This document shows, in pieces, positions 1-13,610 of a stretch of 64,000 nt of DNA. Position 1 is the stretch's first letter. Every line of letters begins with the position of its first letter. Made by a program: the position numbers and the translations under genes. This stretch comes from Escherichia coli. Lineage in GTDB: Bacteria > Pseudomonadota > Gammaproteobacteria > Enterobacterales > Enterobacteriaceae. The notes under the pieces are model-generated. The model was not told the DNA's origin and made no database searches. It saw only the letters and a list, made by a program, of their open reading frames with translations. The stretch is from assembly GCF_030384885.1 (NCBI RefSeq), contig NZ_CP128613.1; one strand, given 5' to 3'.

Positions 1-105
1 CAGGTAGCCAAGTACCGATCCCAGACCAAGACGTACCGCAATGGGTACAATCAGCGCCGCCGAACCGAGATAAATCAGCGCCTGAATCAGCGTATGGCTA
101 TCCAT
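1..105 (-). CDS. kefC: Glutathione-regulated K+ efflux antiporter KefC, N-terminal 35 codons only (gene continues beyond window start)
   Basis: Reverse-strand translation from the ATG at 103-105 gives [35 protein letters not shown], which I recognise as the KefC N-terminus; start overlaps the kefF 3' end as in K-12. Confidence 0.85.
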
Positions 106-4703: not shown

Positions 4704-5474
4704 TTAAATGACTTTGCGAAGATTTTCAGCAAATGCGGCGATCTGTTCTTCGCCGTCGCCTTCAATCACAATGCGCTGACGCTCGCGCTGTTTCGGTGCG
4801 GCAACCTGTTGTTCAGACCAGGCTTCCATGGCGTTAAAGCCAATGTCCGCCGCCGACCATACCTGGACTGGCTTTTTCGCCGCGCCGAGAATGGCTTTCA
4901 TCGAAGGAATTTGTGGGGAATTGATATCAGTGGAAACAGCAACAACCGCAGGCAGCGGAATGCTTAAGGTTTCTGTTTCATCTTCCAGTTCGCGCTCAAC
5001 GGTGAGGGTATCTGCCGTCAGGGAGATAATTTTGCTGACGCCGTTAACTGCCGGAATATTGAGGATTTCGCCCACCAGCAAACCAACCTGCTGGGCATAA
5101 AGGTCGGAAGAACCATCGCCACAAAGGATCAAATCAAAGCCTGCTTTCTGGGCGGCAGCAGCCAGTGCGGTCGCCGTTTGTTGCGGCAGTGCCTGCTCGA
5201 ACTGGTCATCAATCACCACAATCAGTTCATCCGGGCCGCGCGATAGCACATCTTTACGCCCTTTGGCGTTGGTCAGGGCTTTACCGCCCACACTTAAGGC
5301 TGTCACCTGCGCCTCTGCTGTCTGTTGCTTTAGCTGGCAAGCCGCTTCAATAGCGTTGAGATCGTATTGGCTTATTTTGGCATCGGCTTTACTGAAGTCT
5401 AACGAACCATCAGCATTATTGACCGCAATATCCTGTTCATCAGGCACGCACTTATAGCAAGTAATAATCTTCAT
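4704..5474 (-). CDS. fixA: Electron transfer flavoprotein beta-subunit homolog FixA
   Basis: ORF-track ORF extends to 5537, but the start I recall for FixA ([15 protein letters not shown]...) is the ATG at 5472-5474, giving 771 bp. Confidence 0.9.
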
Positions 5475-5559
5475 TGCATCTCCAGAAATCATGAAGGAAA
5501 CGTCGTTCATATCGGTGGTGTTAATTACAGATATCACGCCCTTTAATTTGGAAATAAAA

Positions 5560-5700
5560 CTTTAATCACCAATATTGAAAATATCACACGCAGATAAATC
5601 CAACTTTCAATATTGTTAAGCTCCTCACCAATATTGAAAACATGGCGTAGCAAAAAAGAAATTTTCAATATTGTTTTATGGATCACCAATATTGAAAGTC
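5560..5700. promoter_or_regulatory. cai/fix divergent control region with five copies of a palindromic CAATATTG core (likely CaiF/CRP-type activator sites)
   Basis: Cores at 5570-5577, 5608-5615, 5629-5636, 5666-5673 and 5687-5694 with alternating flanks ACCAATATTGAAA / TTTCAATATTGTT; lies between divergently transcribed fixA and caiT. Confidence 0.6.
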
Positions 5701-5944
5701 AGATGCTATTTTTTCACTCACAATCAAACACATCATATTGATTAATAATGAATATTTTCACAAAGACATCCTGTTTTTACCCGATAAAAAACTGTGATTC
5801 TCATCACAGAACGCAACCCACTGAATACCCATTATGAGTTAGCCATTAACGCGTCCACGAGGTTAATGATAATTATATTAAATGTTAACAAAAATAAAAC
5901 AAACGGGAACGCAAAATAAATATTCGTTTTCACAGTGGAATTAA

Positions 5945-7462
<1,518 letters not shown>

Positions 7463-13214: not shown

Positions 13215-13610
13215 TTAACGACGCATACTCTTCGACAACATCATTTGCCACTTCTGCTCGCGGTTAAGTTCCGTGAGTGGAACGGCAGGAATACGCGGTG
13301 TCTTTCTTACGCCGACTAATTTTTCCCGACTGTTATTGCGCAGGCGCGCGTAAATTTGCTCATCGATATCGACCACTTTAACCAGTCGCTGACACTGGCA
13401 TCCCCGCCCTTCCAGCTTATTAGGGATCATCTTAACTTCGCAGCTTATTTCTGTGACTTCCGACAGAATATAAGTCAGGGTATTAACCGCCTTGCTGTGT
13501 TCAATATCGAAATGAATAGAGATCTCTCTTGCTATCACCCACCGATTTTCAGCCATCATCCATTCGGCGATTAACAAGTAGCGTGGTTTTTCAACATATC
13601 CTTCACACAT
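13215..13610 (-). CDS. caiF: Transcriptional activator CaiF of the cai and fix operons
   Basis: Start I recall for CaiF (MCEGYVEKP...) is the ATG at 13608-13610, 396 bp; ORF-track ORF extends upstream to 13715. Confidence 0.88.
   Translation of the reverse strand: MCEGYVEKPRYLLIAEWMMAENRWVIAREISIHFDIEHSKAVNTLTYILSEVTEISCEVKMIPNKLEGRGCQCQRLVKVVDIDEQIYARLRNNSREKLVGVRKTPRIPAVPLTELNREQKWQMMLSKSMRR

Follow-up and report, generated by a model that had tools for sequence, protein, structure and literature searches.

Four of the five palindromic repeats between the divergent fixA and caiT genes of Escherichia coli are half-sites of operators already known for the activator CaiF in the cai-fix control region; the fifth is an unpaired copy that lies in the core promoter of the fix operon. 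We consider it very probable that all five are CaiF half-sites in the control region shared by fixABCX and caiTABCDE, of which four form the operators F1 and F2; the fifth would also be bound by CaiF. As a finding this is the rediscovery of a textbook-level element, and it serves as a positive control for reading a sequence without tools; the sole addition to the known picture is a deeply conserved fifth half-site embedded in a promoter. Sequence identity, conservation, and geometry were computed, the binding of CaiF at F1 and F2 is taken from the literature, and we infer binding and function for the fifth copy.

An exact search of the window (the entire 64,000-nucleotide stretch of E. coli DNA that was analysed) places cores of sequence CAATATTG at 5570, 5608, 5629, 5666, and 5687, with spacings of 38, 21, 37, and 21 bp; these are the positions and spacings given in the initial annotation of the region, which also described alternating flanks. 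The alternation is real: three identical 15-mers, TCACCAATATTGAAA, start at 5566, 5625, and 5683 (A type), and two copies of TTTCAATATTGTT, the reverse orientation, start at 5605 and 5663 (B type). The clustering of the five copies is far beyond chance: the 473-bp fixA–caiT intergenic region holds five cores, compared with a mean of 0.017 and a maximum of two in 200,000 composition-matched shuffles, and the whole 64-kb window contains eight (1.72 expected), a number that was reached in 0 of 100 shuffles. The repeat region has a G+C content of 25–36% (64–75% A+T), vs 50–60% G+C in the flanking genes. From it diverge fixA, the first gene of fixABCX (4704–5474, minus strand; ATG at 5474, 256 aa), and caiT, the first gene of caiTABCDE (5948–7462, plus strand; a 504-aa ORF), an arrangement found in all of the Enterobacterales loci; fixA is annotated in matching E. 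coli genomes, and caiT is annotated as the L-carnitine/gamma-butyrobetaine antiporter.

K-12 MG1655 and the window agree at every base of all five copies. Of 5426 complete E. coli genomes, 5388 have the 141-bp array, each in a single copy and with 95–100% identity, and it bears no annotation; the 601 bp around the repeats are 100% identical to strain 2013C-4282 and 93–94% identical to most other complete genomes. Matches to the array in a plasmid collection were dismissed as chromosome-sized records that had been wrongly labelled. We also rejected a reading of the repeats as an RNA element: Rfam matches at the repeats were noise, far under the gathering scores, and the repeats sit between the two divergent promoters.

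The published CaiF site, as given in the available text of PMC12083890 and PMC3680233 (citing Buchet et al. 1998/1999), is TTTCAATATTG-N13-CAATATTGAAA. Exact matches to this site are located at 5605–5639 (F1; cores at 5608 and 5629) and 5663–5697 (F2; cores at 5666 and 5687), both identical in K-12, and a search of the 64-kb window that allowed up to three mismatches returned no others (none expected). The second and third copies therefore form F1 and the fourth and fifth form F2, so that the copy nearest fixA is left without a partner. The initial annotation had placed the repeats in the divergent cai-fix control region, attributed them to CaiF, and proposed a comparison with published CaiF sites; the exact matches bear out both the region and the recognition, with four of the five copies making up F1 and F2. 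Its regulators were named rightly, but it grouped the copies wrongly and missed the functional pairs. Copies 2–5 do not differ from the F1 and F2 operators as these are presented in the available text of PMC12083890 and PMC3680233, where binding of CaiF protein at F1 and F2 is reported for K-12 (Buchet et al. 1999); that text names F1 and F2 as the only CaiF sites, and the extra, partnerless copy 1 goes unmentioned in it.

The geometry of the array, computed at 10.5 bp per helical turn, is regular within each operator: the partners in a pair are 21 bp (2.0 turns) apart and share a common face. The initial annotation had taken the array to be strictly phased on one face of the helix, which is true only inside each pair; the centres of F1 and F2 are 58 bp (5.5 turns) apart, that is, on opposite faces (∼189°), and copy 1 is rotated by ∼223° from F1 and by ∼51° from F2. 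Because the F1–F2 gap differs between genera (34 to 38 bp), rigid phasing is disfavoured. The same annotation's roughly 58-bp repeated unit describes the layout fairly but does not reflect a duplication, since only the sites are alike and the spacers are not. A tandem duplication of the unit was rejected: Tandem Repeats Finder reported nothing in the region at a score of at least 30, the repeated blocks are limited to the sites (16–19 nt), and the units are not alike over their full length.

The fifth half-site, TCACCAATATTGAAA at 5566–5580 (plus strand; core at 5570–5577), is the copy nearest fixA and is an exact 15-mer match to the A halves of F1 and F2. It has no inverted partner at N13, with the fixA side (5546–5556) matching at 4 of 11 positions; the closest inverted copy is 24 bp away, so the element is a half-site and not a full operator. 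A degenerate, half-site-like partner with two deletions, TTTAATTTGG at 5542–5551, was rejected because its distance is wrong. The fix promoter is listed as GTGACA-17-TAAAGT (PMC3946193, Table 1). From this listing and an alignment with K-12, a candidate −35 hexamer is found on the minus strand at 5582–5587 (GTGATA here, GTGACA in K-12), and two overlapping candidate −10 hexamers occupy 5554–5564 on the same strand, the listed TAAAGT at 5564 to 5559 and TTTTAT at 5559 to 5554. The 17-bp spacer of the listed promoter runs from 5581 to 5565, and 15 of its 17 positions are taken up by the 15-mer. With the candidate −10s 5 bp apart, the fifth copy would be located at about −18 to −28 or at about −23 to −33; if the hexamer at 5559 to 5554 is the −10, the half-site would overlie the −35 position. 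Under either choice of −10 the fifth copy belongs to the fix core promoter. A scan of 5450–5960 for consensus promoters returned sites no more often than in shuffled sequence and missed both of the activator-dependent promoters.

We compared the intergenic regions of 80 loci that encode relatives of CaiT (with 3-kb flanks), of which the 54 from Enterobacterales were used for the fifth copy. Read on the fix strand, TTCAATATTGGTGA-N6-T(T/A)T(T/A)AT is present in 53 of these 54 loci (one of the 53 with TATTAC as its hexamer), the half-site reading TTCAATATTG-GTGA before the N6 and the hexamer. The distance from the half-site core to this −10-like hexamer is exactly 10 bp in all 53, and the hexamer is TTTTAT in 36, TATTAT in nine, TTTAAT in seven, and TATTAC in one. 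The hexamer at 5559 to 5554 is thus order-wide, whereas TAAAGT is kept only in the Escherichia–Citrobacter–Salmonella group, always as TAnnnT. A metagenome scan for TTCAATATTGGTGA-N6-TWTWAT gave 87 matches. Loci with fixA/caiT account for 40 of them, and a truncated E. coli locus of this kind for one more; the remaining 46 were set aside as chance, being singletons in unrelated low-GC DNA, many of them apparently coding (TTC AAT ATT GGT GAx, that is, F-N-I-G-D/E).

The layouts differ between genera in the number of pairs that accompany this half-site. Five copies, A-38-B-21-A-(34..37)-B-21-A, are found in Escherichia, Salmonella, Citrobacter, Pseudocitrobacter, Phytobacter, and Intestinirhabdus, with F2 itself kept in Escherichia, Salmonella, Citrobacter, Phytobacter, and Intestinirhabdus; three copies, A-38..40-B-21-A, in Yokenella, Trabulsiella, Pluralibacter, Atlantibacter, and relatives; seven copies, with spacings of 38, 21, 38, 21, 38, and 21 bp, in Proteus; and a single A-type copy in Hafnia, Edwardsiella, and Serratia H1w. 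The arrays are therefore odd-numbered (one, three, five, or seven copies), that is, an unpaired fixA-side A copy and zero to three pairs. The 21-bp spacing within pairs is invariant in all of the taxa examined, and the 38-bp step to the first pair is nearly constant. Leminorella and Limnobaculum have a single A-type copy and, ∼25 bp from the fixA start, one B-type copy, and Budvicia has two A-type copies as a direct repeat, 27 bp apart. The array is absent from Shewanella, Campylobacter, Ferrimonas, and others, where isolated single cores occur in three loci.

Conservation of the fifth copy extends to more taxa than that of F1 or F2. Across 18 five-copy taxa the sites are conserved islands, and the sequence between them and at 5700–5790 is at background; in these taxa, however, the whole block at 5474–5590 is conserved with the fifth copy within it, so the evidence for conservation of the copy itself comes from the distant genera. 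We found no description of this half-site in the papers covered by our literature search, which dealt with CaiF binding through secondary sources.

Two of these genera deserve separate mention. In Proteus (eight loci and one metagenome locus) the seven half-sites amount to three operators and the unpaired copy; carnitine metabolism in Proteus is regulated differently, including expression in air (PMC2131755). In Budvicia aquatica, positions 297–340 of the intergenic region hold two copies of ATCACCAATATTGAAA in direct and not inverted orientation, which was seen in no other genus.

The involvement of CRP, also claimed in the initial annotation, is well founded: a perfect CRP site, TGTGATTCTCATCACA (TGTGA-N6-TCACA, 10/10 positions, no mismatches), is located at 5793–5808, upstream of the cai promoter, and the cai and fix promoters use separate CRP molecules (PMC3105977). 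A CRP-like site, TGTTAAGCTCCTCACC, lies inside the F1 spacer at 5614–5629 (8/10 core positions, two mismatches), and a weaker one, TGTTTTATGGATCACC, inside F2 at 5672–5687 (7/10). The frequency of two-mismatch CRP sites across the window does not exceed chance (21 vs 26 expected), so the case for the weaker CRP-like site is its conservation and not its score; the site nested in F1 is kept at 8/10 in most of the five-copy taxa. A motif check was also proposed for FNR and IHF, and here the result is negative: with up to two mismatches allowed, the only match to the FNR consensus TTGAT-N4-ATCAA in the intergenic region is the CRP site itself, and the IHF consensus WATCAANNNNTTR has no match in 5475–5947. 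The lack of an intergenic FNR consensus fits the report that FNR acts via caiF (PMC3688515).

Seen from the cai side, the array keeps a nearly constant distance from the perfect CRP site. The last CaiF core and the centre of the perfect CRP site are 110 bp apart (108–110 bp) in nearly all of the five-copy taxa, with unconserved sequence in between, and F1 is separated from the CRP site by 178.5 bp (17.0 turns). The half-sites of the CRP site are retained between E. coli lineages, and its spacer and flanks diverge. CRP reportedly acts at −41.5 of cai and at a second fix site (CRP site 2) at −69.5, with the two starts said to be 289 bp apart; these three values are consistent with starts near 5842 (cai) and 5552 (fix), to within 1 bp, and the CRP-like centre at 5621.5 fits fix CRP site 2. 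With these starts, CaiF would work on cai from positions of about −162 and −220, so that the DNA would have to bend or loop.

Several readings of the repeats compete. In the most novel one, to which we give somewhat less than an even chance, the fifth half-site is the ancestral, central CaiF element, where CaiF contacts RNA polymerase in place of the −35 contact, and one, two, or three operators were added upstream later in different lineages. CaiF would bind this copy and may either activate or limit fix from it. That the copy is instead a functionless relic of a ∼58-bp duplication, or is kept only through its overlap with the fix core promoter so that only F1 and F2 matter, seems unlikely to us. 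The two CaiF sites named in the available text of the secondary sources agree with it, as does the conservation in close relatives of the entire fix promoter and leader block and not solely of the fifth copy. However, the copy retains zero or one mismatch and its fixed 10-bp distance in 53 of 54 loci, which range from Escherichia to Proteus, Hafnia, Edwardsiella, and Budvicia and differ in the bases beside it, promoter spacers are normally not conserved in sequence, and a unit duplication has left no trace; because the copy is the sole one in several genera, it looks ancestral and not derived. We regard as quite improbable that it is an auto-limiting or repressing site, at which a CaiF protomer bound in the spacer hinders RNA polymerase and holds fix below cai. 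Such a role would suit a 15-mer that fills 15 of the 17 spacer positions of the listed promoter, since proteins bound between −35 and −10 repress more often than they activate, as well as the expression of fix, which is reportedly about ten-fold lower than that of cai; but the genera with one copy would then have no activating site for fix, and the order-wide −10-like hexamer sets the copy over the −35, a position typical of activators.

The other two readings concern the repeats as a whole. The TCAC beside the A-type copies could be a CRP half-site, the CaiF pairs being composite CaiF/CRP sites with flanks that alternate because of CRP; we consider this possible but doubtful. The site at 5614–5629 (TGTTA-N6-TCACC) scores 8/10, is kept in most five-copy taxa, and has the same centre as F1, and several CRP molecules act in the spacer (PMC3105977). 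Against it, TCAC also stands beside the unpaired fifth copy, where it has no TGTGA-like partner 6 bp upstream and yet is invariant in 19 of 19 taxa; moreover, two of the sites in Proteus read TCAA, and many genera have TGCCA or TGCTA as the left half, so the similarity to CRP sites is weak outside the Escherichia–Citrobacter group. It is highly improbable that the repeats serve H-NS or another nucleoid protein, or reflect intrinsic curvature of AT-rich DNA, and are not sites for a specific regulator. The initial annotation had suggested additional binding of nucleoid proteins to this AT-rich DNA, and as an addition the suggestion has some support: the region is 64–75% A+T, H-NS is marked in the fixA–caiT spacer (PMC3946193, Table 1), and H-NS represses carnitine metabolism, albeit probably at the level of caiF (PMC2131755). 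But a nucleoid protein has no need for 10–14 bp of sequence kept base for base with a 21-bp spacing fixed across genera, and the most A+T-rich stretch, 5700–5790, is the least conserved; H-NS may bind the region as a whole, which would leave the repeats unexplained.

The cognate regulator is encoded 7 kb from the array: caiF (13215–13610, minus strand) is an ORF of 131 aa that matches the Pfam family CaiF_GrlA (PF07180) at 25 bits, which is the curated cut-off. The only relative of CaiF with a solved structure is GrlA (4kt5_C), a member of the same family from the LEE pathogenicity island whose structure includes GrlR (4KT5); the likeness is weak and confined to the N-terminal DNA-binding region (CaiF residues 4–62, E = 0.007), and GrlA differs from CaiF in its target promoters and in its partner, GrlR. 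We know of no N13 inverted-repeat operator for GrlA. A single-sequence AlphaFold2 model of CaiF had a mean pLDDT of 40 and was unusable.

Published work places the expression of caiF under the control of anaerobiosis (through FNR) and of cAMP–CRP; CaiF, activated by a CoA ester derived from carnitine, binds F1 and F2 and, with CRP, turns on both promoters. With the halves of each operator two helical turns apart, two CaiF protomers would bind per operator on one face of the DNA; the perfect CRP site at 5793–5808 would serve cai, and the weaker site in the F1 spacer would serve fix. CaiF bound at copy 1 would be coupled directly to RNA polymerase at fix, the copy either replacing the −35 contact or serving as an element bound within the spacer; for cai, the whole array would be a far-upstream element whose distance to the CRP site is fixed. 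TCA(C) is invariant 5′ of every A-type copy in all taxa (5566–5569, 5625–5628, and 5683–5686) and B-type copies lack it, which makes the inverted repeat asymmetric beyond 11 bp; a simple symmetric dimer model does not account for this flank.

The organization of cai-fix resembles that of araC-araBAD, melR-melAB, and rhaSR-rhaBAD, where a pair of divergent promoters is driven from a shared intergenic region by CRP and a specific activator with several sites, one of whose half-sites adjoins or overlaps the −35 region; cai-fix is placed together with rhaBAD-rhaSR and malI-malXY in PMC3105977. Unlike the AraC-family regulators of these sugar regulons, CaiF is a small protein of the CaiF/GrlA family that recognizes inverted-repeat pairs with a 13-bp gap, and next to the promoter it has just one half-site, located further downstream than is usual for them. 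For a site at about −35 to −15 and a fixed distance from the −10, the pho boxes of PhoB, which replace the −35, and spacer binding of the MerR type may serve as analogies; the fix spacer is 17 bp, vs 19–20 bp in MerR-type promoters, no family relationship is claimed, and a contact between CaiF and sigma or alpha is hypothetical. If CaiF binds the fifth half-site, the picture of activation at fix, and possibly at cai, would change, and the site would be relevant to carnitine biosensors based on CaiF that are built from this promoter region (PMC12083890). If that site is also ancestral, the two-site model of F1 and F2 would be incomplete, and CaiF would be able to act from a monomeric site.

The cai side of the intergenic region provided several further observations. 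The caiTABCDE promoter is given in PMC3946193 as TTAACG-16-AATAAT (5846–5873 in the window; GATAAT in this strain), from which transcription would start near 5880 with the perfect CRP site near −80; a conserved CATTAT at 5830–5835 instead fits CRP at −41.5, and the two assignments of the cai promoter conflict. A terminator-like hairpin called on the minus strand at 5792–5809 is the CRP palindrome followed by a run of T and was rejected as an artefact of the scan.

Between 5721 and 5822, the identity of the window to K-12 falls to 57–67%, compared with 97–99% in the flanks, and the length differs by just 1 bp; across 5400–6000, identity to the window of at least 99% is found in 10 of 5398 matching genomes. 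This divergent patch could be an old polymorphism or the product of recombination in a spacer that is constrained only in length. Within it, TTGATT at 5738–5743 (consensus about aTTGATTTAnAA) is conserved across many genera, ∼47 bp past the last CaiF core and in unconserved surroundings; at the same position K-12 has an IHF-like sequence, AATCAGTTTGTTA, on the opposite strand, which is missing in the window strain.

Where the cai CRP site would be expected, ∼250–290 bp upstream of caiT, Edwardsiella, Hafnia, Leminorella, Limnobaculum, and Serratia H1w carry TTTGATTAAGATCAC instead. This sequence matches the FNR consensus TTGAT-N4-ATCAA at 9/10 positions and that of CRP at 8/10; the global regulator may have been switched at one promoter position.
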